Assembly: GCA_043804695.1 (NCBI GenBank)
Contig: JAZDIV010000013.1
Coordinates: forward strand, 1 to 14,016
Reading direction: 5' to 3'
DNA length: 14,016 nucleotides
Origin: PVC group bacterium
GTDB lineage: Bacteria; Auribacterota; Erginobacteria; Erginobacterales; Erginobacteraceae
In this document: one piece after another, positions 377-13,957 of the stretch
Position numbering within the stretch: position 1 is the first letter of the stretch
How the letters are laid out: each line of letters starts with the position of its first letter
Translations under genes and position numbers: made by a program
The notes under the pieces: model-generated
Database searches by the model: none
Told to the model about the DNA's origin: nothing
Seen by the model: the letters and a program-made list of their open reading frames with translations, nothing else

Positions 377-1225
377 ATGGTTAAATCATTCTTTACCCCT
401 GTTTCTCTTCTCCTGATCTTTCTTTTCGTCTCTTCCATCCTGTGTGCGGAGACGGCTGAACTGGCCGACCGGCAGGGGCTGGAAAGTGTCTGGAAACGAT
501 CGGGGAGGACCACGGGGGTGATCGACTACCCCTACAGCCCGCAGCCCGGCATTTACGGCGGGAAAGATGTCCGGCAGCTGGAAAACCGGGGATACATCTT
601 TATCAATCCCCGAACGGAGGAGTTCGCCGCCCGCCGCCCGGGCCGCCGGGCCGAGGAGGCGCCGGCCGCCCCCGTCGAGGCCGACTGCGCGGAGATCCGG
701 AAAGCTCTCGAGGACGAGGTGGTCCGGTCCACGCGGCTCCTGGAAGAGCAGCAGACATCTGCGGAAGACCTCCGCCAACTCAGCCAGAAAGCCGATGACC
801 AGGCGCTGAAGATCGAGGCCCTGGAGTTTGAAATCACCCAATTCGAGGAGCAGGCCGCGGCATCCGCCGGCGTGGCCGGCGTGGAGGGCGTGGTCGGCGG
901 CGGAATCGCGGGCGGCGGACCGGAGGTCGAGGAGACCGGCACCTACCTGGTCGAGAAAGACGACAACCTCTGGACTATCGCCGGCAAACCCGGAATTTAC
1001 AACGACCCCTACCGCTGGCTCCTTCTCTACCACGCCAACCGGGACCAGATCTTCGAGCCGGACCTCATCTATCCCGGCATGGTCCTGCTCGTTCCCCGCT
1101 ACCGGGGGATGGAGCGGCCGCCGAGCGCTCCGGCCGCAGAAGAACCTCCGGCCGCAGAAGAATCTCCGGTGGCAGAAAAGCCTCCGGCGGGGGCGGAAGA
1201 CGCTGAAAACGAGCAAGGAGACTAA
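377..1225 (+). CDS. Secreted protein with coiled coil and LysM peptidoglycan-binding domain
   Basis: ATG 377 preferred over TTG 359 because GGAGG lies at 363-367. N-terminal hydrophobic signal (FTPVSLLLIFLFVSSILCA), heptad-like helix (EIRKALEDEVV...EITQFEEQ), LysM motif YLVEKDDNLWTIA...LYHANRDQIFEPDLIYPGMVLLVP (about 941-1096), acidic Pro/Ala tail. Confidence 0.9.
   Translation: MVKSFFTPVSLLLIFLFVSSILCAETAELADRQGLESVWKRSGRTTGVIDYPYSPQPGIYGGKDVRQLENRGYIFINPRTEEFAARRPGRRAEEAPAAPVEADCAEIRKALEDEVVRSTRLLEEQQTSAEDLRQLSQKADDQALKIEALEFEITQFEEQAAASAGVAGVEGVVGGGIAGGGPEVEETGTYLVEKDDNLWTIAGKPGIYNDPYRWLLLYHANRDQIFEPDLIYPGMVLLVPRYRGMERPPSAPAAEEPPAAEESPVAEKPPAGAEDAENEQGD
1130..1201 (+). repeat. Four degenerate 18-bp in-frame tandem repeats (PAAEEP/PAAEES/PVAEKP/PAGAED)
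   Basis: CCGGCCGCAGAAGAACCT, CCGGCCGCAGAAGAATCT, CCGGTGGCAGAAAAGCCT, CCGGCGGGGGCGGAAGAC in the LysM-protein tail. Confidence 0.8.
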
Positions 1226-3349
1226 ATGGGAAAGACGGCTTCAATCTTCCCGGTCGGCCCCATCAGAAACGCTGGCCGGGCTGGCGCGGCGCTGCTGGTC
1301 CTGTTCTCCTTTTCGCCCGCTCATTCCCAGCCTCTCCAGCGGAGCGATGCGGCCCAGATCCAGGCCGACCTGGAGTCCTCCCTCCAGGACAAGCTTGACA
1401 CGCTGATCGGGCCCCGGAGGAGCATCGTCAACGTCAATGTCACCCTGATCGATCAGTTTGCCGGCCGGGACGCGCAGGCGGCCCGGGCGCTGGAGCGTCA
1501 CCCGGGCATCCGGGTGAAGGTTCCCGACGAGCAGGCGGCAATCAGCAGCGCGAACCGGGGAGATATCTCCAGCCTGCATATTATTATCGACGCCGACGAT
1601 ACCCTGCCGGAGGAGGATCTTGGCGCGGCGCCCGAGTACAACGGGAGAATCCGGGAGGCCGTTTCCCGATGGTCCCGGCTCAATCCGGCCCGGGGGGACA
1701 CGCTCAAGGTCAATCCGATGGAATGGGGAGATCACGCCCCCCCCTCCGCCGCCCAGCAGAACTATGTCCTTTACTCCATCCTGGCCCTGGTGGCGCTTCT
1801 GATCCTGATCGCCGCCATCTACTTCCCGATGCGGAAGCTGAAGGGCACGGCGCCGGCAGCGGCGATGGCGGGAGGCGCCGGGGAAACGGGCGCGCTCGCG
1901 GTCGGCGGAGCCGCGGCCCTCTCGGAAGAGGACCGCCGGAGTGAGAGGAAATCGGAGATGGAAGCGATGCGGGACATGCTCTCCGGGGTCGGAAGCACCG
2001 GCGATGCAACCGAAACCACCCTGACCGCGATCAGGGAACTGATGGAGCAGCAGCTGGCCGGCGGGGCCCGGAACGACACCGGGCTGCTGGAAGAGATCCG
2101 CGATCTGCTCGGGAACCCGCCGCAGGAATCCGACGCCCTCCTCACCGAGATGAGAGACACTCTCTCGGACATGCTCGATGAGCAGAGAAAAATCGCCGCC
2201 CGGGCCGGCATCGCCGCCGGCGCTCCGGGAGCGGCGGCCGCCGCGGCCGCGGCGGCGGGACCGGCAGGCGGTCCGACGGGAGAAGGCGGCGTCGACGATG
2301 CCATGGGGGCCGAGATCGTGGAAGCCCTGGAGACCCTGGAAGAGCTGATGTCCCAGCAGCTGGAGAAAACCCCCGACAAGGAAGGGATCGACCAGCCGTT
2401 CAAGTACCTCAAGTCCACCGACCCGGAGGACATCATTCTCCTGATCAGCGACGAGGAGCCGAAACTGGCGGCGGCGGTTCTTTCCCAGATTGATCCGAAA
2501 ACCGCGGCGGCGGTCTTTGAGGCGCTGGAGGACAACAAGCAGTTCGAGCTGGCCCGGGCCATGACGCAGCTCACCGAAGAAGAAGACATGGCGGAAGAGA
2601 TCAAGGACTTCCTGGAACGGAAGCTGAAGATCGTCCGTCTTCACAAGGACTATCAGCCGGTCACGGGGGTCCGGGTCCTGGCCGACATTCTCAGCACCAG
2701 CCGCTACGCGGTCGCCCGGGTGATGCTGGATAAGATGGAAGGCAAGAACCCGGCGATGGCGGCCGAGGTCCGGAAACGGATGTTCCTCTTCGAGGACATT
2801 CAGACCCTGCAGGACAAGGATGTCGAAATCATCATCCACAACCTCAGCCCGGAACTCCTGGCCTACGCGCTGACCGATACCGACGAGGAGACCCGGGCCA
2901 AGTTCTTGAAGAACATGACCGAGAAGGCCCGGGAGATGGTCCGGGAAGACATGGAATCGGTCAAGAAAGTGCAGCTCGAGGAGGAGGGGAAGGAACTTCC
3001 CTTCAACCAGGCTCTCCTCGGCGTCGACCAGAACATCATCGACGAAATCTTCCGGACGGTGGACCGGACCACCCTGAAAATGGCGCTCCGGGGAGCCTCC
3101 GAACAGGTGCAGGAGAAGTTTTTCAGCGGCCTGACCGAACGCGCGGTCGCCATGCTGAGAGAGGACCTGGAGGTGATGGGCGGCATCTCCCGGGACCGGG
3201 CGGATGAAGCCCAGGAAGAGATCATGAACATCCTCCGCCAGCTGAGCAGCAAGAACCTGTCGGCCCAGCATGAAATAATCGCCACCATCCGGAAACTCGA
3301 ACACGAGGGACAGATCACGGTCGCCCGTTTCCGGGAAGAGACGGTATAA
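1226..3349 (+). CDS. fliG: FliF-like ring domain / TM / FliG middle and duplicated C-terminal domain fusion protein (putative one-piece rotor)
   Basis: AAGGAG RBS; ATG directly follows the upstream TAA. Signal-peptide-like aa 1-34. FliF_C/RBM3-like aa ~45-167 (LESSLQDKLDTLIGPRRSIVNVNVTL...ISSLHIIID...IREAVSRWSRLNPARGDTLKVNPMEW). TM aa 180-200. FliG_M-like from aa 391 (PFKYLKSTDPEDIILLISDEEPKLAAAVLSQIDP). MFLFED (MFxF hinge) at aa 519. Torque-helix-like NMTEKAREMVRED and GLTERAVAMLRED. Terminal AQHEIIATIRKLEHEGQI. The FliG part is confident; the FliF-like part is moderately confident. Confidence 0.85.
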   Translation: MGKTASIFPVGPIRNAGRAGAALLVLFSFSPAHSQPLQRSDAAQIQADLESSLQDKLDTLIGPRRSIVNVNVTLIDQFAGRDAQAARALERHPGIRVKVPDEQAAISSANRGDISSLHIIIDADDTLPEEDLGAAPEYNGRIREAVSRWSRLNPARGDTLKVNPMEWGDHAPPSAAQQNYVLYSILALVALLILIAAIYFPMRKLKGTAPAAAMAGGAGETGALAVGGAAALSEEDRRSERKSEMEAMRDMLSGVGSTGDATETTLTAIRELMEQQLAGGARNDTGLLEEIRDLLGNPPQESDALLTEMRDTLSDMLDEQRKIAARAGIAAGAPGAAAAAAAAAGPAGGPTGEGGVDDAMGAEIVEALETLEELMSQQLEKTPDKEGIDQPFKYLKSTDPEDIILLISDEEPKLAAAVLSQIDPKTAAAVFEALEDNKQFELARAMTQLTEEEDMAEEIKDFLERKLKIVRLHKDYQPVTGVRVLADILSTSRYAVARVMLDKMEGKNPAMAAEVRKRMFLFEDIQTLQDKDVEIIIHNLSPELLAYALTDTDEETRAKFLKNMTEKAREMVREDMESVKKVQLEEEGKELPFNQALLGVDQNIIDEIFRTVDRTTLKMALRGASEQVQEKFFSGLTERAVAMLREDLEVMGGISRDRADEAQEEIMNILRQLSSKNLSAQHEIIATIRKLEHEGQITVARFREETV

Positions 3350-3350
3350 T

Positions 3351-3557
3351 ATGATCAAATTGTCCAGGCTGAACGGGCAGGAGCTGGTCGTCAACGCCGA
3401 GATGATCGAGAAGATCGAAGCCAAGCCCGACACCATCATCACCCTCACCACCGGAGATCAGTACATCGTCCGGGACACGGTGGATGAGATCATCGACAAG
3501 GTGACCCGGTATAAACGGGAGATCAACCTCCCCAGCAAGGATACAACAACTGGATAA
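3351..3557 (+). CDS. flbD: FlbD/SwrD family small flagellar-motor protein
   Basis: MIKLSRLNGQELVVNAEMIEKIEAKPDTIITLTTGDQYIVRDTVDEIIDKV matches the FlbD pattern (MIxLTRLNG...NxxxIExIExxPDTxIxL..G..xxV.E). It sits in its usual position directly upstream of motA. Confidence 0.9.
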   Translation: MIKLSRLNGQELVVNAEMIEKIEAKPDTIITLTTGDQYIVRDTVDEIIDKVTRYKREINLPSKDTTTG

Positions 3558-3563
3558 GGAATT

Positions 3564-4316
3564 ATGCGCCTCAGCACCATCATCGGTTTTATCATCGGCG
3601 GCTGCGTCATCTTCTTCTCCATTTACCTCCGCGGAGCGGAGATGGTCAAGGCCTTCGTTAACTACCCTTCGATGATCATCGTCTTTGGGGGGACGACAGC
3701 CGCCATCCTGATCAACTTCAGCTTCCGCCAGATTCTCAGCGGACTGAAGGCTTTTCGCTACACCCTGGTGGGAAGCATCATCGACCCGGAAGCGGTCATC
3801 AACCTGATCGTGGAGATGGCGGTCAAGGCCCGGAAGGAAGGTTTCATGTCCATCCGCAACCTCTCCACCCGGGGCCGTTACCCGCTGCTGGATATCGGGG
3901 TCGATCTGGTTGCCGACGGGACCGACCCGGGGGTCACCCGGGGCATCCTGGAAACGGTCTCCGATTACCTGCAGATGAAGATCGGCGCCGACGAGCGGAT
4001 CTGGCGGGATGTCGGGGTGTATGCCCCTCTCTACGGGATGGTGGGGACGCTGATCGGGCTGATCATGCTTTTAAGAACGCTGACCGACCCCCAGACCATC
4101 GCCCCCAACATGTCGATCGCCCTGGTAACCACCTTCTACGGGCTCATCATGGCCGGCTTGATCTGCATGCCGGTGGCGGGGAAGATCCATGTCTACAACA
4201 CCAACATGGCCCTGGCCCGGGAGATCATCATCGAAGGGATCGCCTCGATCCAGGCCGGGGACAACTCCCAGATCGTCCGGGAAAAACTCCGGGCCTATCT
4301 GGCCGGGCGGCAGTAG
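3564..4316 (+). CDS. motA: Stator A subunit, MotA/PomA/MotP family
   Basis: Four hydrophobic segments and motifs PSMIIVFGGT, ARKEG, LVADGTD, APLYGMVGTLIGLI, ALVTTFYG, EIIIEGIASIQAGDN...EKL. TAAGGA RBS upstream. Confidence 0.95.
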   Translation: MRLSTIIGFIIGGCVIFFSIYLRGAEMVKAFVNYPSMIIVFGGTTAAILINFSFRQILSGLKAFRYTLVGSIIDPEAVINLIVEMAVKARKEGFMSIRNLSTRGRYPLLDIGVDLVADGTDPGVTRGILETVSDYLQMKIGADERIWRDVGVYAPLYGMVGTLIGLIMLLRTLTDPQTIAPNMSIALVTTFYGLIMAGLICMPVAGKIHVYNTNMALAREIIIEGIASIQAGDNSQIVREKLRAYLAGRQ

Positions 4317-4343
4317 TCTTATTTTCCCGGAGGAAAAATAAGA
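4317..4343. repeat. 27-bp palindromic repeat, copy 1
   Basis: TCTTATTTTCCCGGAGGAAAAATAAGA, one mismatch to the copy at 11582-11608. Begins at the base after the motA stop codon. Confidence 0.9.
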
Positions 4344-4424
4344 ACTATTCCATCGCAGCCTTCTGACCGGGCGGAGATGAGTCAGCTCCCGATCGTTGCC
4401 TTCGAATGACAGGAAAGTATCCCC

Positions 4425-5240
4425 ATGGCCGACGACACCGACCTGACCCCTCAGGTCGAGCATGAACGGATCGCCCCCGAGACGGGGAGCGGCAGCATCG
4501 AGGGCGATTGGCCGCCCTACTGGATGGTCACCTACTCCGATATGGTGACCAACCTGATGACCTTCTTCGTCCTCTGGTACGCCCTGACCACGGCGGGCAT
4601 CGACCCCAGGATTATCAAAATTCGTACGGACGATTCGGTCATTATCCGGGGAATAGCAGAAAAAACCAACCTCGATCGAGTCACCGAGGAGGAGCTGCGG
4701 ATCCTGCGCCAGTTCCAGCGGCTCTCCCGGGATCAGCAGCGGATCGTTCTGGCCGAGATGCGGGCCCTCCGGATCAAGGCGGAAGAGGTGATGGAGTTCA
4801 TCCGGCAGGGACGGATGGAGAACGAGGTCGAGATGAAGGTGACGGCGGAAGACATCGTGATCATCCCCACCGCGCCCCTCGTTTTCCGGGAAGGGAGCGC
4901 CGACATCAGGGAATCCTTCTACCCGGTCCTGGACAAGATCGCCTGGCTGCTGAAGGAAACCGGGGCGTCGGTCCGGATCGAGGGACATACCGACGCCACC
5001 CCCATCCACCCCCGCCACCGGCAGAGGTTCCCGACCAACTGGGATCTCTCCGCCGCCCGGGCGATCTCGGTCGCCCGTTACCTGCTCGACGCCGGGGAGA
5101 TCCCCCCGGAGAGAATCGCCGCCGCGGCCTACGGCCCCTCCCGGCCGAAGTTCTCCAACGACGATCCGGACCTGATGCCCCGCAACCGCCGGGTCGAGTT
5201 TCACATCTTCATCAGCTCCGAATCGATCAGCAAGAAGTAG
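4425..5240 (+). CDS. motB: Stator B subunit MotB/PomB, paralogue 1 (TM Asp and OmpA-like PG-binding domain)
   Basis: WMVTYSDMVTNLMTFFVLWY with conserved Asp39. C-terminal IEGHTD...NWDLSAARA...AAYG...P...NRRVEF. Confidence 0.93.
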   Translation: MADDTDLTPQVEHERIAPETGSGSIEGDWPPYWMVTYSDMVTNLMTFFVLWYALTTAGIDPRIIKIRTDDSVIIRGIAEKTNLDRVTEEELRILRQFQRLSRDQQRIVLAEMRALRIKAEEVMEFIRQGRMENEVEMKVTAEDIVIIPTAPLVFREGSADIRESFYPVLDKIAWLLKETGASVRIEGHTDATPIHPRHRQRFPTNWDLSAARAISVARYLLDAGEIPPERIAAAAYGPSRPKFSNDDPDLMPRNRRVEFHIFISSESISKK

Positions 5241-5250
5241 CTATACCATC

Positions 5251-6084
5251 ATGGCCCATCGGATACCAAAGTCGGCAGAGGATACCGGGAAAGCGGAGTG
5301 GCCGCCGGAGTGGATGACCACCTACTCCGACATGGCCACCCTCCTGATGACCTTCTTCATCATCCTCTCCTGCATGCTCGCCCTCAACATCGACATCACC
5401 TGGGTGTCGGGACAGAAAATGATCTCGCTGGTTCCCGAGGAGATCCAGGACACGACCGACATCGAGCTGTCCCGGGAAGAGAAAGACCTCCTGAAAAAGA
5501 TCCGGGAGCTGAAGCAGCAGCAGATGATGGAGCTGGCCAAGATTAACGAGATGCAGCGGATGGCAAAAGAGGTCCAGCAGTACATCATCGACGCCAACCT
5601 GAGCAGCTTTGTCCGGGTCGAGGTCAGCAAGTGGAAGCTGAAGATCGTCCCGGTCGCCCCCTTCCTTTTCCGGCCGGGCAGCGCCGCTCTCAAGGCGGAG
5701 GGGAAGACCTTTCTCACGGCCCTCTCGAAATTTTTCCTCTACAGCCCGACCGCCCAGGTCCGGATAACGGGGCACACCGACGATGTCCCGATCAAAACCC
5801 CGCGCTTCCCGTCCAACTGGGAGCTGAGCTGCGCCCGGGCCACGGTCGTGATGCGCTACCTGACCGATGAATGCGGCCTTGACCCCCAGACCCTGAGCGC
5901 GGTCGGCTACGGGCCCTATCAACCGGTCATGTCCAACGCCACCCCGGAGGGCCGGGCAAAAAACCGGCGGGTAGAGATTGAAATCATCCAGCGTCCGGGA
6001 TTACCGGTTCAATTGCCCGAATCCGGCGAAACCGGGGTTATCGACGCGGAGGGCAGTGCCAAGGCGAAAAATTCGGAGATCTGA
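5251..6084 (+). CDS. motB: Stator B subunit MotB/PomB, paralogue 2 (TM Asp and OmpA-like PG-binding domain)
   Basis: WMTTYSDMATLLMTFFIILS with conserved Asp27. C-terminal ITGHTD...NWELSCARA...VGYG...P...NRRVEI. Confidence 0.93.
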   Translation: MAHRIPKSAEDTGKAEWPPEWMTTYSDMATLLMTFFIILSCMLALNIDITWVSGQKMISLVPEEIQDTTDIELSREEKDLLKKIRELKQQQMMELAKINEMQRMAKEVQQYIIDANLSSFVRVEVSKWKLKIVPVAPFLFRPGSAALKAEGKTFLTALSKFFLYSPTAQVRITGHTDDVPIKTPRFPSNWELSCARATVVMRYLTDECGLDPQTLSAVGYGPYQPVMSNATPEGRAKNRRVEIEIIQRPGLPVQLPESGETGVIDAEGSAKAKNSEI

Positions 6085-6300: not shown

Positions 6301-7434
6301 TCACCCGGCTGCATTTTTTCTCCTGTGGAAACGGGCGGCCCGGGCCCATTTAATCTTCAGATACTCCCGGATGATCCGGGGATAAACCCGGAAATTAAAG
6401 AGGATATTCAGCGTCAGAAAACATTCATACGTGCAGAAACAGCGTGACTCTTTGATCGCCCGGCGGGCCCGGGCGGCCGCGGGACCGGACCAGAGGCGCT
6501 TGAAGTCATATCCGGCATCCCTCAGATTTCCCATCTTCAGATCATCGTGGAGTTCGCAGGGCAACAGATCTCCGTTGGCAAAGAGCGCCGCCCCCAGAAT
6601 ACCCGCATAACAGGGAAGAATCATCCGGTTCTCCCTGATGACCCGGGCGATGATCTGATGCCGGATAATCCGTTTCGCGTTGATCAGGTCCGCGAAGGGG
6701 AAGCGGTCATACCCGCTTAACATCCGTTCCTTGATCCCCCTCTCCATCGCCCGGGCGTATTTCTCGTAGTTGTCGATATTAAAAAATTTCGCCGCCGGCT
6801 CCATCGGTTTCCCCCGGCAGAGAAGCGTAAAAAGGTTGTCCGCCTCGGTCTCTTCGACGAAGTAGCGGTACATGCTCATCAGTTTGGCATCGTTGAACGA
6901 GGAGACCGTGGTCTCGACTGTCGCGGAAAAATGAGGATAGGCCTTTTCCAGCCGCTTCAATTCATGGAAGGTGGCCATCGCTTTTTCAAATAAGCCGGGG
7001 ACGCCCCTGATCTCGTCATGATCCGCCCCGATCCCGTCAATCGACACGTCAACCATCAGGTCCATCCCCGGGCAGGTGTCCATTATTTTCCGCACGGTTT
7101 CCACCACCCGTTCCGTCAGGGAACCGTTGGTCGGAATGCCGACATTGAGAATATGGTTGTTCCGATGAAATATCCGGATGATTTCCGGCAGATCCTGCCT
7201 CAAAAAGGGCTCCCCTCCCGTCGGCAACAGGAAAAGAAAGTCATCCATCCCGGCGGAGATTTTATCGATCTCTTCCAGCGTCAGCTCATCGCGGCCCGGA
7301 TGGATCCCCGCCAGCAGGCAGTGCTTGCACCAGGCATTGCAGCGCTCGGTGACAAAAAACACCAGGTAAAGAGGAGAGGCATGCCGTTTAGAGAAAACCC
7401 GGGAGGCGTATTTAAGATACCGCAGCGCAGACAT
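6301..7434 (-). CDS. Radical SAM protein with C-terminal SPASM/twitch-like Cys cluster
   Basis: CNAWCKHC (CxxxCxxC), TGGEPFLRQD, TNG, VSIDG...HDEIRG; C-terminal CYAG...GDLLPCE...MGNL...CFCTYEC. GAGG RBS upstream. Confidence 0.92.
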   Translation of the reverse strand: MSALRYLKYASRVFSKRHASPLYLVFFVTERCNAWCKHCLLAGIHPGRDELTLEEIDKISAGMDDFLFLLPTGGEPFLRQDLPEIIRIFHRNNHILNVGIPTNGSLTERVVETVRKIMDTCPGMDLMVDVSIDGIGADHDEIRGVPGLFEKAMATFHELKRLEKAYPHFSATVETTVSSFNDAKLMSMYRYFVEETEADNLFTLLCRGKPMEPAAKFFNIDNYEKYARAMERGIKERMLSGYDRFPFADLINAKRIIRHQIIARVIRENRMILPCYAGILGAALFANGDLLPCELHDDLKMGNLRDAGYDFKRLWSGPAAARARRAIKESRCFCTYECFLTLNILFNFRVYPRIIREYLKIKWARAARFHRRKNAAG

Positions 7435-7482
7435 AGATAAACTTTTACCTCACTTTTGAATAAATGAATCGGGACAATAAAA

Positions 7483-7599
7483 GGTAACGGTTAGGGTAAC
7501 GATGCCCGTATCGGTAAGGGTAACGGTAACGGGCGCCGCGGCGAGCTCACGTAACCGTAACCGGCAGACGAAACGGGCCTCGTTACCGTAACCGTTACC
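7483..7599. repeat. Intergenic inverted-repeat element built from GGTAAC-type hexamers
   Basis: 7483-7513 matches the reverse complement of 7569-7599 at 28/31 positions. Further GGTAAC/CGTAAC units lie inside, with a central CGCCGCGGCG palindrome (7534-7543). Confidence 0.8.
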
Positions 7600-7681
7600 C
7601 AGTTGCGCCGCAGGCGCTAACTTGTAATATTATACCATGTCCAATGAATATAACCAGTTCATCCCTTCCCGGGAATACCTT

Positions 7682-8821
7682 TCACTCTTTTTTCCGCCGG
7701 GTCTTCTCCGCGGCCCGATAGAGTCGTTGATAGGCGCCGACCATGGCCCCGATATCATACCCGGCCGCCACCTCATTCTGTGCCGTCCGGCCCAGCCGGT
7801 CAGCGAAATCCCGATCGTCCAGCACCCGCTCAATAGCTTGGGCCAAAGCCGATCCGTCCCGGGGAGGGACCAGAAGCCCGGAAAAGCCGTCCCGGACCAG
7901 GCCGGAGCTCCCCCCCACCGCCGTCGCCACCACCGCCCGCTTGAGAGCCATCGCCTCCAGGAGGGCAATGGAGAGGCCTTCCCGGATGGAACTGAGGACA
8001 AACACATCGGAGAGGCCCACAATCTCCGCCGCGTCGGGGCGGGAGCCGAGCAGGAACACCCGTCCATCAAGCCCGCGGGCCCGGATGGTCTCGCCCAGTT
8101 CCCCGCGCAGTTCCCCCTCTCCCAGGAGGAGGAAGTACACGTCCTGCCGGTGCCCGAGGATCTTTTCGGCGGCCTCCAGCAGGTAGCGGTGCCCTTTTTT
8201 CGGCGTCAGCGCCGCCGCCGTGGCCACCACTCGGTGTCCGGGGAGAACCCCGAGCCCGGCCAGTTTCCCGGCCGGGTCGGCGACTTTCCGCAAACGCTCG
8301 AGGTTGAGACCGTTTGCCACCACCCGGACTTTCCGCGCCGGAATGCCGCAGCGGGAGACGAGCGAACGGCGGACGGGTTCTGAAACCGCGATCACCTGAT
8401 CGGTGCGGAAAGCGAGAATATAATCGAGCAGCCGCCGGGGGGCGTTTTTCCATTCGGACATGTTATGTTCGGTCCGGAAAAGAAGACACCGGGGGCAGAG
8501 GACAGCCCCGGCCCAACCCCAGAGATGGCTTGAGAAGAGATGGGTGTGAATGATCCGGACCCGGTTATCCCGGATGATCCCGAGCAGCCGCCGGAAGCTC
8601 TTGAGATCGAATGGCGACCGCCGGCCCAGCACAAAGACCGGGACGCCGATCGCCCGCAGCATGTCCGCGACACCGCCTCCCCGGGTCAGGGCGCAGACCA
8701 GAAACCGGAACTTCTCCCGGTCCCCCCGCTGGATGAGATCGTAGACCACCATCTCGGCGCCTTCCCGGGGGAGGCTGTCTATGACATGGAGAACGGTAAT
8801 TTTCCGCTTATTCCGCATCAT
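7682..8821 (-). CDS. Glycosyltransferase family 4 (GT-B)
   Basis: VLHVIDSLPREGAE, IHTH, VANG, KGHRYLLEA, FVLSSIREGLSIALLEAMA (EX7E), ATAVGG. Start could be 8821 or 8818. Confidence 0.93.
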   Translation of the reverse strand: MMRNKRKITVLHVIDSLPREGAEMVVYDLIQRGDREKFRFLVCALTRGGGVADMLRAIGVPVFVLGRRSPFDLKSFRRLLGIIRDNRVRIIHTHLFSSHLWGWAGAVLCPRCLLFRTEHNMSEWKNAPRRLLDYILAFRTDQVIAVSEPVRRSLVSRCGIPARKVRVVANGLNLERLRKVADPAGKLAGLGVLPGHRVVATAAALTPKKGHRYLLEAAEKILGHRQDVYFLLLGEGELRGELGETIRARGLDGRVFLLGSRPDAAEIVGLSDVFVLSSIREGLSIALLEAMALKRAVVATAVGGSSGLVRDGFSGLLVPPRDGSALAQAIERVLDDRDFADRLGRTAQNEVAAGYDIGAMVGAYQRLYRAAEKTRRKKE

Positions 8822-8853
8822 AAATCACAAATTCGTTACCATATGACAGATAA

Positions 8854-9669
8854 CTAAAGCCCCTCTCCCACCGCCTTCTGCCAGAGATGATGCCAGAGGT
8901 CGAAAGCCCCTTCTATTTTCATCCGGAAATCCCCCAGATCATCATCCCGCGAGACCTCGGTCCGCCGGAGACGGAAGAGATCGTAGGGACGGCGGTTGGT
9001 CCCCGGGCGGACGGTGACCGCGCCCCGGTATCCGGCCGTCCTGACCCGGGCGGCCAGGTCCGGCGTGTGCTTGCCCCGGGGGTAGGAGAACCACTCCGGC
9101 CTCACCCCCAGCCGTTCTCCGATGCGGGAGGCGCTCCCCGCTATCTCGCGCTCCGCTTCCGGCGCCGGCAAACCGGTGAGCTCCCGGTGCGACAGCGAAT
9201 GAGACCCGACCGCGATGCCGTATCCCCGCATTTCGTCCAGCATTTCCCAGGAGAGCGGGCGGGATTGCTTAGGCCCGGTCCGATAACGTTCCAGAGCGAC
9301 CGGGCCGTCGATAAAACCGGGAACGACGAAGACCAGCGCCGGCAGCCGCCGCTGCTTCAGAACCGGGAAGGCCGTGTCATAGAAATCCAGATAGCCGTCA
9401 TCAAAGGTTAAGACCAGCACGGTCTTCCCTTCATCCCTCCCGGCCAGGGCCCCCGACAGCGTCTCCACCCGGTAACCCTCCCCGAGCAGGAAGTCCATCT
9501 GTCTCGCGAACTCGCCGGGGGAGACGGAGAGCCGGTCCCCGGGGCAGTCGGCCACCCGGTGGTACATCAGGATCCGGACCCCTCCTCCCCGGACCAGGCG
9601 GCTGATCCGGGCCGCCGGGGCGGATAACACCGGGATGACCTTTCGCAGCGTGCGGCTACCCTTTCCCAT
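8854..9669 (-). CDS. Polysaccharide deacetylase (CE4/NodB-like)
   Basis: ILMYHRV, LTFDDGY, GSHSLSH, FSYPRG motifs. ATG 9669 (MGKGSRT...) overlaps the upstream GT end by 14 nt and is preferred over the track start at 9765. Confidence 0.9.
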   Translation of the reverse strand: MGKGSRTLRKVIPVLSAPAARISRLVRGGGVRILMYHRVADCPGDRLSVSPGEFARQMDFLLGEGYRVETLSGALAGRDEGKTVLVLTFDDGYLDFYDTAFPVLKQRRLPALVFVVPGFIDGPVALERYRTGPKQSRPLSWEMLDEMRGYGIAVGSHSLSHRELTGLPAPEAEREIAGSASRIGERLGVRPEWFSYPRGKHTPDLAARVRTAGYRGAVTVRPGTNRRPYDLFRLRRTEVSRDDDLGDFRMKIEGAFDLWHHLWQKAVGEGL

Positions 9670-10795
9670 GGCTGATGGTGTCCCCCGCCCATCCGGCCGG
9701 GCGCCCGGCGGCCAGAGAATACAGTTCCTCGACTTTCCGGCACATCCTGGAAACGGTGAAATCACGCGTCACCCGGCGGCAGGCCGCCTTCCCCAGCACC
9801 GGGAGAAGGGCCGGGCTCCCCAGCAATTCCGCCAGACGAGCGGTGAGGGCGGCGGGATCCCCCGGCGGCACCAGAAAACCGTTCCCGCCGTTATCGATCA
9901 CCTCCGGGTTGGCGCCGACCGTGGTAGCAATCACCGCCCTCCCGGCCGCCATCGCCTCCAGGAGGGCGTTGGAGAACCCCTCGGCGAGAGAGGGAAGAAC
10001 AAAGATATGCATCTCCCGTAAAAACGAATCCGGGTCTACAATCTCTCCGCGGAAGGTAAGCCGACCCTGTAAACGGTGCCTCCGCCCCAGTTCCTGCAGC
10101 CGGTCGTGATACCGCCGGTCGAGGACCCGGCCCCCGATATGCAGTTCCCAGGGCGGGTCCACGGGCAACCGGCCGGCCGCCTCCAGCAGGTACTCCAGCC
10201 CCTTGACCGGACGGATGTTGCCCAGAGTCCCGATCTTTATTTTTTCTTCCGGGACCGGCGGACGGACGGCCCTGCCGCCGGGGGGGGGCTCTATCCCGTT
10301 GTACACGAGCACGATCCTGCTTGCGGAGGCCTTCTCCCGGCGGAGCAGGTAGGATACCACCTCGCCGGAATTGGCGGTGATCCTGAACGTGAGGGGGTTG
10401 ACCGCCCGGTGAGCCAGGATATGACGCCCCTTTTTCCAGAAACCGGTATCTCGCCGGCTGGTGATCACCGTGGTACCGGTGAGAAAGCCGGCGAGAGGAG
10501 AAATAATATTCGCCGCGAAGAGGTACGAATGCACCACGGAGACACGGTGACGGCGGATCGCGCCGCTCACCCCCCCGATCGCCCGGGCGAAACGCGGCCC
10601 CATGATATCCCGGAGGGCAAGCGCTTCAACCGGGACCCCTTTCCCTTCCAGTTCCTTCCCCAGGGGTCCTTTCTCCAGCAGGCAGCAGACAACCGGCTGA
10701 AAACGGTCCGGATCCAGGCCGGAGATCAGCTGCCAAAGGTGCCTCTGGGCACCCGCCCGGACCATCTTGTCGATAACGTAGAGGATTCTGATCAT
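9656..10795 (-). CDS. Glycosyltransferase family 4 (GT-B)
   Basis: ILYVIDKMVRAGAQ, VYNGI, KGLEYLLEA, FVLPSLAEGFSNALLEAMAAG (EX7E), ATTVGANPEVI. Confidence 0.93.
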   Translation of the reverse strand: MIRILYVIDKMVRAGAQRHLWQLISGLDPDRFQPVVCCLLEKGPLGKELEGKGVPVEALALRDIMGPRFARAIGGVSGAIRRHRVSVVHSYLFAANIISPLAGFLTGTTVITSRRDTGFWKKGRHILAHRAVNPLTFRITANSGEVVSYLLRREKASASRIVLVYNGIEPPPGGRAVRPPVPEEKIKIGTLGNIRPVKGLEYLLEAAGRLPVDPPWELHIGGRVLDRRYHDRLQELGRRHRLQGRLTFRGEIVDPDSFLREMHIFVLPSLAEGFSNALLEAMAAGRAVIATTVGANPEVIDNGGNGFLVPPGDPAALTARLAELLGSPALLPVLGKAACRRVTRDFTVSRMCRKVEELYSLAAGRPAGWAGDTISHGKG

Positions 10796-10820
10796 TATAA
10801 ATTAGCTCGCTGCGCTCGCA
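10796..10820 (-). repeat. 25-bp motif directly upstream of a GT start codon, copy A
   Basis: Minus strand TGCGAGCGCAGCGAGCTAATTTATA followed by ATG; 23/25 identical to 13957-13981. Confidence 0.8.
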
Positions 10821-10833
10821 AATTTATTATCCA

Positions 10834-11475
10834 TCACTCCATCACCCCATCATCGCCTGGTTGCATATCCTGCGGGGAAACCCTGTTGTCCCGCAGGCGG
10901 TATTCCCTCCCGCACCGGGAGCAGACCGCCTCTTCATTTTCGAAGGTCAACCGTGTCCCGCAGGCGCAGACCCAGCCCCTGATCACGGCCGGATTGCCGT
11001 AGACCAGGGCATAATCGGGGACATCCCGGGTGACCACGGAACCGGCGCCGACAAAAGCGGAACGGCCGATCGTGTGCCCACAGACAATGGTGGCGTTGGC
11101 CCCGATGCTGGCCGATCTCCCGACCAGTGTCTTTTTATAAAACTCGCTCCCCCGCTGGGGAAATTCGCTCCGGGGGTTCAGGATATTGATAAAAACCATC
11201 GAGGGGCCGCAGAAGACATAGTCTTCCAGTTCCACGCCCTCATAGACCGAAACATTGTTCTGAATTTTTACCTGATCTCCGATCCGGACATTCCCGGCGA
11301 TATTGACGTTCTGCCCGAGGGAGCAGTTCTTCCCGATCCGAGCGCCGGATTGGATATGACTGAAATGCCAGATCTTCGTCCCCGCCCCAATGACCGCTCC
11401 CTCGTCTACATAACTGGATTCGTGGACGAAGTAATCCCCCTGTTGAGAAAAATTAGAGCTGTCTTTTTTTATCAT
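10834..11475 (-). CDS. wbpD: WbpD/WlbB-like sugar N-acetyltransferase (left-handed beta-helix) with C-terminal Cys-pair ribbon
   Basis: VHESSYVDEGAVIGAGTKIWHFSHI, VKIQNNVSVYEGVELEDYVFCGPSMVF, SIGANATIVCG, GNPA..GWVCACG...CSRCG. GGAG RBS upstream. Confidence 0.85.
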   Translation of the reverse strand: MIKKDSSNFSQQGDYFVHESSYVDEGAVIGAGTKIWHFSHIQSGARIGKNCSLGQNVNIAGNVRIGDQVKIQNNVSVYEGVELEDYVFCGPSMVFINILNPRSEFPQRGSEFYKKTLVGRSASIGANATIVCGHTIGRSAFVGAGSVVTRDVPDYALVYGNPAVIRGWVCACGTRLTFENEEAVCSRCGREYRLRDNRVSPQDMQPGDDGVME

Positions 11476-11581
11476 CGATCTTTCTCCATTTATAAATGAG
11501 CTTCCTTAGATCGCATATTTATATTTTGAACACTGAATTCACTTAAAATTTACCTGTGAAGTTATTATACTGCTTGCACAC

Positions 11582-11608
11582 TCTTATTTTTCCGGAGGAA
11601 AAATAAGA
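11582..11608. repeat. 27-bp palindromic repeat, copy 2 (perfect 12-bp stem, GGA loop)
   Basis: TCTTATTTTTCC-GGA-GGAAAAATAAGA, abutting the stop codon (11609-11611) of the dehydrogenase gene. Confidence 0.92.
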
Positions 11609-12613
11609 TTATAATTCTACCGTAACTCCTCCTTCCTCCAGTGACCTCTGGGCCGCCTCCAGAACCCGTACCACCGCGCAGCCGTTTTCACCGTCGGTCA
11701 GGGGACGCCGCCGCTCCTTCACGCACCGGATAAAATGTCCGGTCTCCGCCTGCAGGGGTTCCCCGGCCTTCACCCAGGGGATCTGCACGTCTCCGTAGCG
11801 AAGATTCAGATACTCCCCGTAGGTGTCATAGACGAGGTTTTCGGGCACTCCCTTATCGTAAATCCTGATCGGCTCGCTGCTGTCCATGTCATCGAAGACC
11901 ATCATTTTCCTGCTCCCGACGATGGTCACCCGCCTGATTTTATGGGGGTCCAGCCAGCTGACATGAAGATGGGCCATTACCCGGTCGGGGAAGGTTATGG
12001 TGATGAAATCCACATCGGCCACATTGCTCTGAATATATGACTCTCCCCGGGCGGCCACCGATCGGGGTTCCCGGTCGATAAGATAGAGGGCGACCGAGAC
12101 ATCGTGGGGGGCGAAGGTCCAGAGAGCGTTCTCGCTCCGCCGGATCTTCCCCAGGTTGACCCGCTGGCTGTACAGATAATAGAGATCCCCGATCTTGCCG
12201 CTGCGGAGCTCGTCTTTTAGTTTTATTACCCCGGGATGATACAGCAGGAGGTGTCCGACCATCAGGATCAATTCCCGTTTCTCCGCCTGTTCACAGAGTT
12301 TCCGGCACTCGTCGGCGGTCAGCGCCATCGGTTTCTCCACGAAAACGTCTTTACCGGCCTCCAGGCAGTCTCGGGCAATCCGGTAGTGGGTGCTCCCCGG
12401 CGTGGCCACCACCACCGCCCGGATGGAGGAGTCCTGCAAAATCCGACCGTAGTCGGCGGTAACCGCCATCTCGGGATACTTCGCCCGGGCGGCGGCAAGC
12501 CGGGATTCCACCAGATCGGCGGCGGTGACGACCTCCGCCCCGGGCTGTTCCTGAAAATTCCTCAGCAAATTCTTCCCCCACCCTCCGACACCGATAATTC
12601 CTAATTTTATCAT
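11609..12613 (-). CDS. Gfo/Idh/MocA family NAD-dependent oxidoreductase (WbpB/WlbA-like nucleotide-sugar dehydrogenase)
   Basis: Rossmann motif GIIGVGGWG, VATP..TH, VFVEKPMA, MVGH, APHD. GAGGG RBS fits ATG 12613 (alternative GTG 12616). Adjacent to the WbpD-like gene. Confidence 0.9.
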   Translation of the reverse strand: MIKLGIIGVGGWGKNLLRNFQEQPGAEVVTAADLVESRLAAARAKYPEMAVTADYGRILQDSSIRAVVVATPGSTHYRIARDCLEAGKDVFVEKPMALTADECRKLCEQAEKRELILMVGHLLLYHPGVIKLKDELRSGKIGDLYYLYSQRVNLGKIRRSENALWTFAPHDVSVALYLIDREPRSVAARGESYIQSNVADVDFITITFPDRVMAHLHVSWLDPHKIRRVTIVGSRKMMVFDDMDSSEPIRIYDKGVPENLVYDTYGEYLNLRYGDVQIPWVKAGEPLQAETGHFIRCVKERRRPLTDGENGCAVVRVLEAAQRSLEEGGVTVEL

Positions 12614-12688
12614 CACTCCCTCTCTTATCCCGGATTATTCATGAAAATTAATTCTACGGACAATAATACACATAATATCAGATTAAAA

Positions 12689-12713
12689 TTATTTTTCCGG
12701 AGGAAAAATAAGA
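12689..12713. repeat. 27-bp palindromic repeat, copy 3 (25 bp retained), inside the 3' end of a GT gene
   Basis: TTATTTTTCCGGAGGAAAAATAAGA; on the minus strand it encodes LIFPPEK and the TAA stop. Confidence 0.9.
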
Positions 12714-13957
12714 CTGGATGAGAAAAGATCCGCGATCTGCCGGCTGGTCACCCGGATGTCCCACAACTGTTCTATCTTCTTCCTGCCCGACCGGCCGTAC
12801 CTTCTCAACAATTCAGGATTACCACTGACCCTCTTAACCAGATCGGCGATCGCGCGGGGATCTTTCTCGGCGATCGCGAACCCGCAGAATGGGTTATCGA
12901 TCAGCTCCGGCAATGAGGGGAGCGGAGTGCAGGCGACCGGGACGCCGACGGCAAGCGCTTCCAAGAGCACATTGGGTATCCCCCAGTGGATCCGCAGGAC
13001 CGCGGGCAGGATAAAAATATCCGCCCACCGGTAATGCCGCGGCATCTCTTCCTGCGCCTGGTAGCCGGTGAAGGTGATCCGGCTTTCCAGGTTCTTTTCC
13101 CTAACGATCGTTTTCAGCCGCTCTTCCAGATACCCGCCGCCGATAATCCGGCAGTGAAAGTCGAACTTTTCCTCCGCCAGCAGAGCGCAGGCGTCGATCA
13201 GGTACTCGAACCCCTTGCATTCGAACAGACTCCCCGCGGAGAGGATATGGAAGGCCCCGTCCCCGGGAGCCTCCCCGCCGGCCGGCCTCCCTGCCCTCCC
13301 CGGGGCGGCAATTTTTCCCTTCAGACGATAGTTCTCCAGATCGATCCCGTGGTAGATGATCCTGATCTTATCCGGGCTGGTCTCCGGGGCAAGCCCCAGA
13401 AGGTGCCGCTTGTTGTCGGCGGTGCAGGTAATCACAAAAGCCGCCCGGCGGAGCTTCTCGCCCAGGCCGACGGTCTTGACGTGGATATCATGGGCATGCC
13501 CGGTGAAACTGAACGGGATCCGGTTGATCCGGGAAATACAGAAGGCCGTCAGGGCCGGATAGGTGGCCCACTGGCCGTGAACGTGCTCGATGCCCCGCTT
13601 CCGGCAGACGGCGGCGAAGTACACCGCCCGGGGGATACAGGCGAGAGATTTGCAGAGGAACTCGGCATCCCGCCAGTTCATCCTGATCACGGAAAAGACC
13701 ATCGCCAGGTACTCCCGGGGCCGGGTAAAAAAAAGGCGACAGTTTTCCCCCAGCACGTTCCGATCCAGGAGAAGCCCGGCATAGATCGCCCTCTCCGCCA
13801 GTCCGTTGCCGACGGCATGGCGCACGGGCTCCCGGCTGCTCTTCTTCAGGGAAAAGACCACCAGGTCCAGCAGCCGCTCGAGGGCGAGGAGCTCCCGGAG
13901 AATAAAAGCCTCGTCGTAGCAGGGGAACCGGGAGAAGATCATGGCGACTTTCTTCAT
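12689..13957 (-). CDS. Glycosyltransferase family 4 (WcaL-like)
   Basis: FPCYDEAFILREL, HVHGQWA, PFSFTGHAHDI, IYHGID, KGFEYLIDA, GIPNVLLEALAVG, LPELI. Confidence 0.9.
   Translation of the reverse strand: MKKVAMIFSRFPCYDEAFILRELLALERLLDLVVFSLKKSSREPVRHAVGNGLAERAIYAGLLLDRNVLGENCRLFFTRPREYLAMVFSVIRMNWRDAEFLCKSLACIPRAVYFAAVCRKRGIEHVHGQWATYPALTAFCISRINRIPFSFTGHAHDIHVKTVGLGEKLRRAAFVITCTADNKRHLLGLAPETSPDKIRIIYHGIDLENYRLKGKIAAPGRAGRPAGGEAPGDGAFHILSAGSLFECKGFEYLIDACALLAEEKFDFHCRIIGGGYLEERLKTIVREKNLESRITFTGYQAQEEMPRHYRWADIFILPAVLRIHWGIPNVLLEALAVGVPVACTPLPSLPELIDNPFCGFAIAEKDPRAIADLVKRVSGNPELLRRYGRSGRKKIEQLWDIRVTSRQIADLFSSSLIFPPEK

Follow-up and report, generated by a model that had tools for sequence, protein, structure and literature searches.

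What does an operon for the rotor and stator of a flagellar motor do in a bacterium in which six other flagellar gene families were sought and not found? The question is raised by a 14,016-base contig (C13), analysed here over its entire length and referred to as the window, from a 2.97-Mb metagenome-assembled genome (MAG) of the Auribacterota (155 contigs, 88% complete, 1.4% contamination). Six tightly packed open reading frames (ORFs), all on the + strand and within positions 377–6084 of the window, encode a LysM/coiled-coil protein, a fusion of FliF and FliG domains, a protein of the FlbD/SwrD family, a MotA-type stator subunit and two MotB paralogues (MotB1 and MotB2). A first-pass annotation, made from the DNA letters alone, had described this packed operon, and the ORF listing returned its coordinates and its intergenic gaps (0, 1, 6, 108 and 10 nt, in order from lysM to motB2) exactly as claimed. 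The annotation had further read the six genes as a motor repurposed outside a flagellum. We consider it probable that the cassette encodes a non-flagellar, ion-driven rotor–stator machine, derived from the flagellar motor and lodged in an exosortase/polysaccharide locus.

The cassette is conserved in an order lacking other flagellar gene families

We surveyed the 14 genomes of the order (Candidatus Auribacterota), eight of which are at least 90% complete. A full-length fusion gene free of stop codons was present in 13 of them (split over two contig ends in one), and flbD occurred as a single copy beside it in 13 of 14. The gene order lysM–fusion–flbD–motA–motB1(–motB2) was found, as far as the loci reach, in 12 of 12 relatives' loci, and again on the metagenome contigs L021, L023, L024, L025 and L099. 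Identity across the order, measured on the relatives' loci, was 68–88% for MotA and 52–79% for the fusion. By their source names, the family members belong to Candidatus Auribacterota, including Ca. Erginobacter occultus. In the order, the fusion, FliG_C, FlbD and this MotA were missing from a single genome, G004 (same family, 94% complete); there the cassette seems to have gone as a unit, either by loss or by an assembly miss.

Flagellar gene families were then sought in the same genomes, with searches that were positive in the controls Escherichia coli, Bacillus subtilis, Caulobacter and Thermotoga. FHIPEP (FlhA, PF00771), FliP (PF00813), Flg_bb_rod (PF00460), Flagellin_N (PF00669), YscJ_FliF (PF01514) and FliMN_C (FliM/FliN, PF01052) were each absent from all 14 genomes of the order, the eight at least 90% complete included, and the matches to FliG_C in the order were solely the two stretches inside the fusion. 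Across 79 genomes of the phylum, FlhA was detected in 16, from four families, and the fusion in 13; none of the 16 carried the fusion and none of the 13 carried FlhA. According to the accessible text on Auribacterota MAGs from Ace Lake, none of them encodes flagella; MotA and FliG are not mentioned in that text (PMC9324843). Ca. Erginobacter occultus, one of the Ace Lake MAGs, carries a member of the fusion family. These results support the earlier reading of a repurposed, non-flagellar motor: no flagellar gene set was found elsewhere, and the synteny recurs, with intact fusion genes and no decay, in genomes lacking the other flagellar genes.

The 707-aa protein joins a FliF ring-building domain to FliG

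The layout of the fusion was derived from its sequence, from a 24-member alignment (A1) and from two structure models. In order, it comprises a hydrophobic N-terminal helix (a signal or transmembrane (TM) helix), a periplasmic domain, a TM helix, a Gly/Ala-rich linker, FliG_M, an MFLFED hinge, an extra armadillo (ARM)-type repeat and FliG_C. Pfam searches identified FliG_C in two stretches (E 8.3e-42; 142.3 bits, cut-off 23.3) and FliG_M (43.4 bits, cut-off 25), and the M and C domains together matched Thermotoga maritima FliG with an E-value of 4e-33. FliG_N was not above its cut-off in the fusion (19.1 bits vs 25), with the match falling on the middle domain; likewise, the full-length FliG model TIGR00207 reached 160 bits, under its cut-off of 226.7, and covered model positions 109–304 only. 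The model of the C-terminal part, with a predicted local distance difference test (pLDDT) score of 80, superposed on the C-domain of T. maritima FliG over 89 of 89 residues (Z 14.2, root-mean-square deviation (rmsd) 1.2) and on the stator-bound FliG 8ucs_H over 88 of 88 (Z 13.8, rmsd 1.4).

Of the charged residues on the torque ridge of FliG, most but not all are kept. A gapless alignment places K264, R281, D288, D289 and R297 of E. coli K-12 FliG at R622, R639, E646, D647 and S655 of the fusion, with four of the five torque-ridge charges retained; R639, E646 and D647 do not vary among the 24 members of A1, and R622 is nearly invariant. The stator–rotor contacts named in a survey of MotAB, in its accessible part, are R90/D288–D289 and E98/R281 (PMC12505986). 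At the FliM-binding EHPQ motif, the fusion has D-E-E-P-K, conserved in 23–24 of 24 members, and this replacement fits the absence of FliM.

FliG_C of the fusion also contains an internal duplication, in which residues 536–577 repeat in residues 608–649 (42 aa, 36% identity, E 3e-7; window 2798–3031 vs 3032–3346). In the extra ARM copy, at a register offset of 72, K567, E574 and D575 stand at the positions of E. coli R281, D288 and D289, and E574 is invariant and D575 nearly invariant across the family (A1). Because charged residues are kept in this copy, the rotor subunit may present two charged ridges. The duplication is present in the Omnitrophota-like proteins P0032 and P0033 and absent in P0030 and P0031.

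The FliF half is more remote from its known counterparts. Pfam FliF models gave no match on the 707-aa protein, and since a single-sequence search of PDB sequences with its N-terminal 215 residues returned chance matches only, a profile search was needed. A profile built from 11 N-terminal domains (A2) was searched against 177,635 PDB sequences, and its top three entries were all FliF (E 4.9e-4, 0.0086 and 0.011), in alignments that span both halves of ring-building motif 3 (RBM3), the R-G-D motif before the second TM helix (TM2) of FliF, and TM2 itself. Structure comparison gave the same answer. The first 18 Foldseek rows for the model of this domain were all FliF RBM3 (best E 2.5e-5), and an exhaustive VIA-align search over 48,161 chains ranked Salmonella FliF first (6scn_A, Z 13.9, rmsd 2.4 over 100 residues, FliF 229–438) and Vibrio FliF next (Z 13.8 and 12.2), followed by other families of ring-building-motif proteins, PrgK (9.1) and SpoIIIAG (8.5). 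When the A2 profile was run on the 79 phylum genomes, its sole match outside the order was a 539-aa ORF directly upstream of fliG in a flagellated relative (E 9.1e-4), presumably the FliF of that organism. RBM1 and RBM2 (Pfam YscJ_FliF) had no match in the fusion, whose periplasmic part comprises only ~140 residues, and at the site of the FliF beta-collar there is a short, poorly modelled loop (residues 77–113). From the profile and fold evidence, therefore, the FliF half is real but consists of RBM3 and a TM helix only. The FliF/FliG fusion of the first-pass annotation accordingly holds for FliG M and C and for the RBM3 domain of FliF, and not for FliF as a whole.

The linker between the two halves carries, at residues ~266–322 (window 2021–2191), repeated amphipathic motifs of the L-x-E-I-x-D-L-L type. 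Its segment from L288 to L317 is invariant across the family (A1) and recognisable in the Omnitrophota-like proteins. A docking function is conceivable for this segment, with FlbD or an adjacent subunit among the possible partners; it would then substitute for FliG_N.

The stator subunits are of the flagellar type

MotA aligned from end to end with solved flagellar MotA and PomA proteins (E 4.7e-41 to 3.6e-37), and its best NCBIfam models were PomA and MotP, both under their equivalog cut-offs. On the TolQ model it scored 19.5 bits vs a cut-off of 221 bits, and it had no match to ZorA among the PADLOC models; nor does the window hold ZorC/D/E effector genes. By these results the A subunit is of neither the TolQ/ExbB nor the ZorA type, in line with the distinction from TolQR/ExbBD and Zorya drawn at the first reading of the DNA. 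The channel prolines of TM3 and TM4, P173 and P222 in E. coli, align to P155 and P203 of MotA, and the Arg of the cytoplasmic loop is retained. Both MotB1 and MotB2 matched MotB_plug (36.7 and 39.5 bits) and OmpA (71.1 and 66.6 bits), and the Y-S-D motif of each, which contains the TM Asp, aligns to F-S-D or Y-A-D of solved MotBs. FlbD retains R6, N15 and the P-D-T motif, all listed as conserved in the accessible text of a 2026 paper on the SwrD hexamer, according to which binding of SwrD to MotA was predicted but could not be confirmed (PMC13740483).

The 108-nt spacer between motA and motB1 (4317–4424) opens with an A+T-rich hairpin with 12-nt arms (4317–4343). The spacer is 96 nt long in the same-genus locus L011 and only 2–3 nt in L012 and L013; given this difference, the hairpin-bearing spacer looks like a family-specific insertion.

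The cassette FliG and MotA form a lineage of their own

Relatives of the fusion outside the order are few. A phmmer search of 1.84 billion representative sequences with the N-terminal 215 residues returned only seven proteins at E ≤ 0.001. Five of them lie outside the close family: four (560–667 aa) have a C-terminal FliG_M and FliG_C, and the fifth is a partial protein of 345 aa with no Pfam match. Faint YscJ_FliF_C matches were seen in two of the five, and two are named Candidatus Omnitrophota. On the short related contigs L022 and L048, the arrangement fusion–flbD–motA(–motB) is kept.

In a maximum likelihood tree of FliG M and C domains (78 rows), the 11 fusions all fell on one side of a branch with a support of 100 in the Shimodaira–Hasegawa-like approximate likelihood ratio test (SH-aLRT), and the seven flagellar FliGs of the phylum were placed among 60 canonical FliGs. 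Uniting the Auribacterota fusions and the flagellar FliGs of the phylum in one clade cost 79.5 log-likelihood units (p-AU 0.00016 in the approximately unbiased (AU) test). The MotA of the cassette is 35–37% identical to the flagellar MotA of the phylum vs 42.8% to the MotA of L048. MotAs from the databases fell into three tiers of identity, namely 68–100% (own family), 47–54% (one named Omnitrophota) and ≤43% (canonical flagellar). In a 59-row MotA tree, a single branch with SH-aLRT 100 set the first two tiers and the L048 MotA apart from the rest; the middle tier was picked by identity, and cassette context is verified for L048 only. In these trees, the FliG and MotA of the cassette make up a lineage apart from the flagellar ones.

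The cassette lies in an exosortase/polysaccharide locus

The protein encoded by the first gene begins with a signal peptide and ends in a Pro/Glu-rich tail; between them, a variable coiled coil connects two conserved modules, one of ~60 aa on the N-terminal side and a LysM-like one on the C-terminal side. Its own similarity to LysM is weak: the Pfam LysM match (E 0.0023, 18.3 bits) is under the cut-off of 20.9, the NCBIfam LysM/YgaU match (6e-9) is also under cut-off, and the ESM Atlas gave no feature match and low-TM LysM neighbours only. PF01476 (LysM) was found in more distant homologues of the 282-aa protein, and lysM adjoins the fusion gene in 12 of 12 relatives' loci. We infer that the LysM-type protein is a peptidoglycan-anchored periplasmic partner of the other cassette proteins.

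Non-coding DNA had been noted ahead of the operon and a convergent polysaccharide locus behind it, and both are borne out. The former extends for just 376 nt, to the contig end, because the window is the whole contig. At the very end of the contig, positions 1–46 form a perfect 46-nt palindrome, which may have caused the assembly break, and a G+C hairpin with 14-nt arms (282–310) lies ~67 nt 5' of the lysM start. Rfam returned zero matches in the window, and a promoter and terminator scan of the leader found no sigma-70-like site on the + strand.

Upstream of lysM in the relatives, and divergent from it, are genes for two paralogous secreted proteins (~340 and ~490 aa) with no Pfam match, and beyond them genes for a metallophosphoesterase, a polysaccharide deacetylase, an EpsH exosortase and a DUF3485 protein. 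In this genome the exosortase series opens contig C84 (53,160 bases). To judge by synteny with the same-genus locus L011, though not from the assembly, C84 is probably the left-hand neighbour of the window. On the other side of the operon, Pfam identified a radical-SAM/SPASM gene and then glycan genes on the − strand, and the downstream polysaccharide genes are in part common to L011 and L012. With the exosortase series upstream and shared glycan genes downstream, the cassette thus sits inside a large exosortase/surface-glycan locus. The features of the cassette and of its surroundings are collected in Table 1.

L099 and L025 have the radical-SAM gene in the same position at 72–73% identity, and the same-genus L011 lacks it; its best NCBIfam models are heme-synthase-like and far under cut-off. 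The longest ORFs of the deacetylase (8854–9765) and of the upstream glycosyltransferase (9656–10795), both on the − strand, overlap by 110 nt, and for the deacetylase a start codon further into its longest ORF is probable.

Table 1. Positions of the cassette genes, of the domains of the fusion protein and of the surrounding features (window coordinates unless another contig or locus is given)
Feature	Position	Strand	Basis or remark
Non-coding leader to contig end	1–376		palindrome and hairpin
LysM/coiled-coil protein gene, 282 aa	377–1225	+	start taken as ATG; longest ORF begins at TTG 359
FliF(RBM3)–FliG(M+C) fusion gene, presumed rotor subunit, 707 aa	1226–3349	+	Pfam, alignments, models
Periplasmic RBM3-like ring-building domain, residues 34–168	1325–1729	+	VIA-align, Foldseek, profile search
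TM helix after the RBM3 domain, residues 175–206, equivalent to FliF TM2	1748–1843	+	model helix; aligns to FliF after the RGD motif
Gly/Ala-rich cytoplasmic linker with conserved amphipathic helical motifs (residues ~266–322)	1844–2392	+	alignment A1
FliG middle domain, FliM-binding EHPQ-type motif replaced by DEEPK	2423–2629	+	Pfam FliG_M 4e-11; T. maritima FliG alignment
First FliG_C stretch, MFLFED hinge and extra ARM-type repeat	2732–2983	+	internal duplicate of residues 608–649
Second FliG_C stretch, charged torque ridge R622, R639, E646, D647	3011–3250	+	gapless alignment to E. coli FliG 239–316
FlbD/SwrD family gene, 68 aa	3351–3557	+	Pfam FlbD 3.2e-27
MotA/PomA-type stator A subunit gene, 250 aa	3564–4316	+	Pfam MotA_ExbB 1.6e-21
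MotB paralogue 1 gene, 271 aa	4425–5240	+	MotB_plug and OmpA (Pfam)
MotB paralogue 2 gene, 277 aa	5251–6084	+	MotB_plug and OmpA (Pfam)
Radical-SAM/SPASM gene, convergent on motB2	6301–7434	−	Pfam
Context outside the machine: radical-SAM/SPASM, three GT4 glycosyltransferases, deacetylase, hexapeptide acetyltransferase, GFO oxidoreductase	6301–13957	−	Pfam
Upstream secreted-protein/exosortase series	C84:231–6296 (this genome); L011:730–6840; L013:1635–7017; L012:498–1544		synteny

A proposed mechanism and its alternatives

If the cassette works as a rotor–stator machine, the RBM3 domains would assemble a ring in the inner membrane, and this ring would present a circle of FliG_C domains on the cytoplasmic face as a track. 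Peptidoglycan-anchored units of the MotA5MotB2 type would couple ion flow to a push on FliG_C, by which the ring would turn. The stator might be built from the one MotA and the two MotB paralogues, as hetero-dimers or as alternative dimers of the latter, and FlbD might assist the stator units. The LysM/coiled-coil protein could act as bushing or scaffold, or could connect the assembly to the wall or the load. The conserved place in the exosortase/polysaccharide locus points to surface-glycan or envelope work, and the load may be related to the cell wall, as suggested at the outset.

Several points weigh against this reading. The ring and its rotation are what we infer from the parts, no obvious candidate for a part to be turned is encoded in the operon, and a peptidoglycan-bound LysM partner, if it is fixed to the rotor, would hinder rotation. 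The cassette is dispensable, given that G004 lacks the whole of it. On the rotor side, none of the 24 members keeps R297, its equivalent at position 655 being S, P or T; next to it, Arg occurs at 656 in 16 of 24, and R658 is invariant. On the stator side, 13 of 13 aligned MotA sequences (two of them copies from one genome) have a loop Arg where solved MotAs have Glu, eight residues after the retained Arg, and the residue that follows is acidic in 10 of the 13. We take these two positions to be R90 and E98 of E. coli MotA, which aligns over TM3–TM4 only, so that R90 and E98 are not directly mappable. Through this change from Glu to Arg, the stator's part in one of the two canonical charge pairs is altered. 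For the FliF half, the RBM3 model is moderately confident only (pLDDT 69), and the similarity to FliF is marginal at the sequence level (E 5e-4 to 1e-2). Furthermore, all of the genomes are MAGs that are 75–97% complete. Both trees are quick, unrooted searches with long branches and limited sampling, and the group submitted to the AU test was defined with the tree already known.

The alternative that survives best is a non-rotary, ion-driven force transducer, which we regard as unlikely. MotAB would then act on a stationary FliG platform, as ExbBD does on TonB and TolQR on TolA, and the conformational work would pass by way of RBM3 and the LysM/coiled-coil protein to the wall or the outer membrane, where it might power, for instance, the export or anchoring of exosortase substrates or polysaccharide. 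A static assembly would suit the LysM protein and both MotBs, which are predicted peptidoglycan binders, as well as the altered charge pair, the lack of an axle or load gene in the operon, and the exosortase/polysaccharide setting. It would leave unexplained why the RBM3 fold matches the ring-forming domain of FliF best, why the torque ridge has retained four of its five charges, with three invariant across all 24 members, and why MotA is of the flagellar rather than the TolQ/ExbB type; moreover, 5:2 stators are generally thought to rotate anyway.

Far less probable is that an ordinary flagellum exists, with the cassette as its dispersed motor operon and with its remaining genes in unassembled parts of these MAGs. 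The genome is 88% complete in 155 contigs, its relatives are all MAGs, and flagella do occur in other families of the phylum. Nevertheless, six independent flagellar families are absent from all 14 genomes, the eight with a completeness of 90% or more among them, and it is implausible that every assembly should have missed more than 20 scattered genes. The fusion is also without parts required of a flagellar rotor, namely RBM1 and RBM2, FliG_N and the FliM-binding motif, and the Ace Lake MAGs are reported, in the text accessible to us, to lack flagella (PMC9324843).

A decaying relic of a lost flagellum, functionless today, is very improbable as well. Flagella elsewhere in the phylum and the absence of the cassette from G004 would agree with such a relic, but the ORFs are intact and free of internal stops in 13 of 14 genomes, MotA and the fusion keep the identities given above across the order, the functional residues are invariant, the same architecture recurs in Omnitrophota-like relatives, and the lineage is distinct from the flagellar genes of the phylum. 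A Zorya-like anti-phage or conflict system, with a MotAB-like 5:2 motor sensing envelope perturbation, is equally improbable: both MotBs match PADLOC ZorB models (E 1e-8 to 1e-23), but such matches reflect shared MotB/OmpA homology, MotA has no ZorA match and the other four proteins match none of the 5027 PADLOC models, the window holds no ZorC/D-like effector gene, and vertical conservation in a fixed polysaccharide context across the order is unlike a mobile defence island.

A rotor–stator machine outside the flagellum thus remains the reading that we prefer. A bolder version of it, which we put forward tentatively and hold to be possible rather than probable, is that the cassette represents a free-standing rotary machine of an undescribed kind. 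It would consist of a homo-oligomeric FliF-RBM3/FliG ring, powered by MotAB for envelope or exosortase/polysaccharide work, and its FliG and MotA lineage would be shared with Omnitrophota and would have split off before the sampled flagellar lineages diversified. Given such an early split, the machine would have branched off the flagellar motor very long ago or would be a surviving cousin of that motor's rotor–stator core.

Comparison with known rotary and ion-driven systems

With the flagellar motor's core, the cassette shares the RBM3 fold, FliG M and C, an MFXF-type hinge and four of five ridge charges, a flagellar-type MotA with both channel prolines, MotBs with plug, Asp and OmpA domain, and the gene order flbD–motA–motB. 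The same order is found in the fla operons of Bacillus and of spirochaetes. The differences are as marked. Unlike in a flagellum, the export gate, rod/hook, filament and FliM/FliN families were found in none of the 14 genomes here. FliF consists of RBM3 and the TM helix only and is covalently fused to FliG, with a Gly/Ala linker where the FliF C-peptide and FliG_N would be. Further, DEEPK replaces EHPQ, an extra ARM repeat is present, the R297 equivalent is lost, the Glu position of MotA is Arg, and the operon includes two MotB paralogues and a LysM/coiled-coil partner. To our knowledge, torque generation by FliG and MotAB is known from the flagellum alone, and the cassette suggests that flagellar rotor and stator parts are used in a non-flagellar machine.

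TolQR, ExbBD, AglRQS, GldLM and ZorAB are non-flagellar 5:2 ion motors that perform envelope work other than swimming. They share with the cassette a channel protein of the MotA/ExbB family and a partner of the MotB/TolR type; they differ from it in that the MotA here is of the flagellar (PomA/MotP-like) type, and we know of none among them that uses FliG or a FliF-type ring. This genome has, in addition, two separate ExbB/TolQ-type genes on other contigs. AglRQS drives gliding and, with Nfs, the deposition of spore-coat polysaccharide in Myxococcus, and the latter is a precedent for such a motor coupled to surface polysaccharide.

The covalent joining of FliF and FliG has a laboratory counterpart. 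Engineered FliF–FliG fusions of Vibrio alginolyticus form MS-rings, and their S-ring (RBM3) has been solved (PDB 8z4d and 8z4g), as described in the accessible text (PMC11481574). Entry 8z4d is among both the sequence matches and the fold matches of the fusion here, and in both cases FliF is joined to FliG in one polypeptide. The Vibrio constructs, in contrast, are laboratory-made, contain full-length FliF and FliG (a 945-aa chain) and come from a complete flagellar system, whereas the fusion here is natural, has 707 aa and is without RBM1, RBM2 and FliG_N. Deletion-fusion mutants of fliF and fliG reportedly exist in Salmonella as well. In the literature we found no description of a natural FliF–FliG fusion or of a FliG–MotAB module in flagellum-less bacteria; for FliF–FliG fusions, the literature found describes engineered constructs only. 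In its accessible part, the MotAB survey does not mention FlbD and mentions FliG once, and its supplements might list such stators (PMC12505986).

If the reading proposed here is true, a rotor–stator pair that is conserved without flagellar export and axial genes implies that the rotary core works, and is selected, by itself. The cassette would then offer a minimal six-gene system, with a rotor made of one protein, for the study of torque generation, and the fusion should be approachable by expression and imaging, as were the engineered Vibrio fusions in the work available to us (PMC11481574). An undescribed free-standing rotary machine, if that is what the cassette encodes, would bear directly on the origin of the flagellar motor and would be a new member among the envelope machines driven by 5:2 motors.

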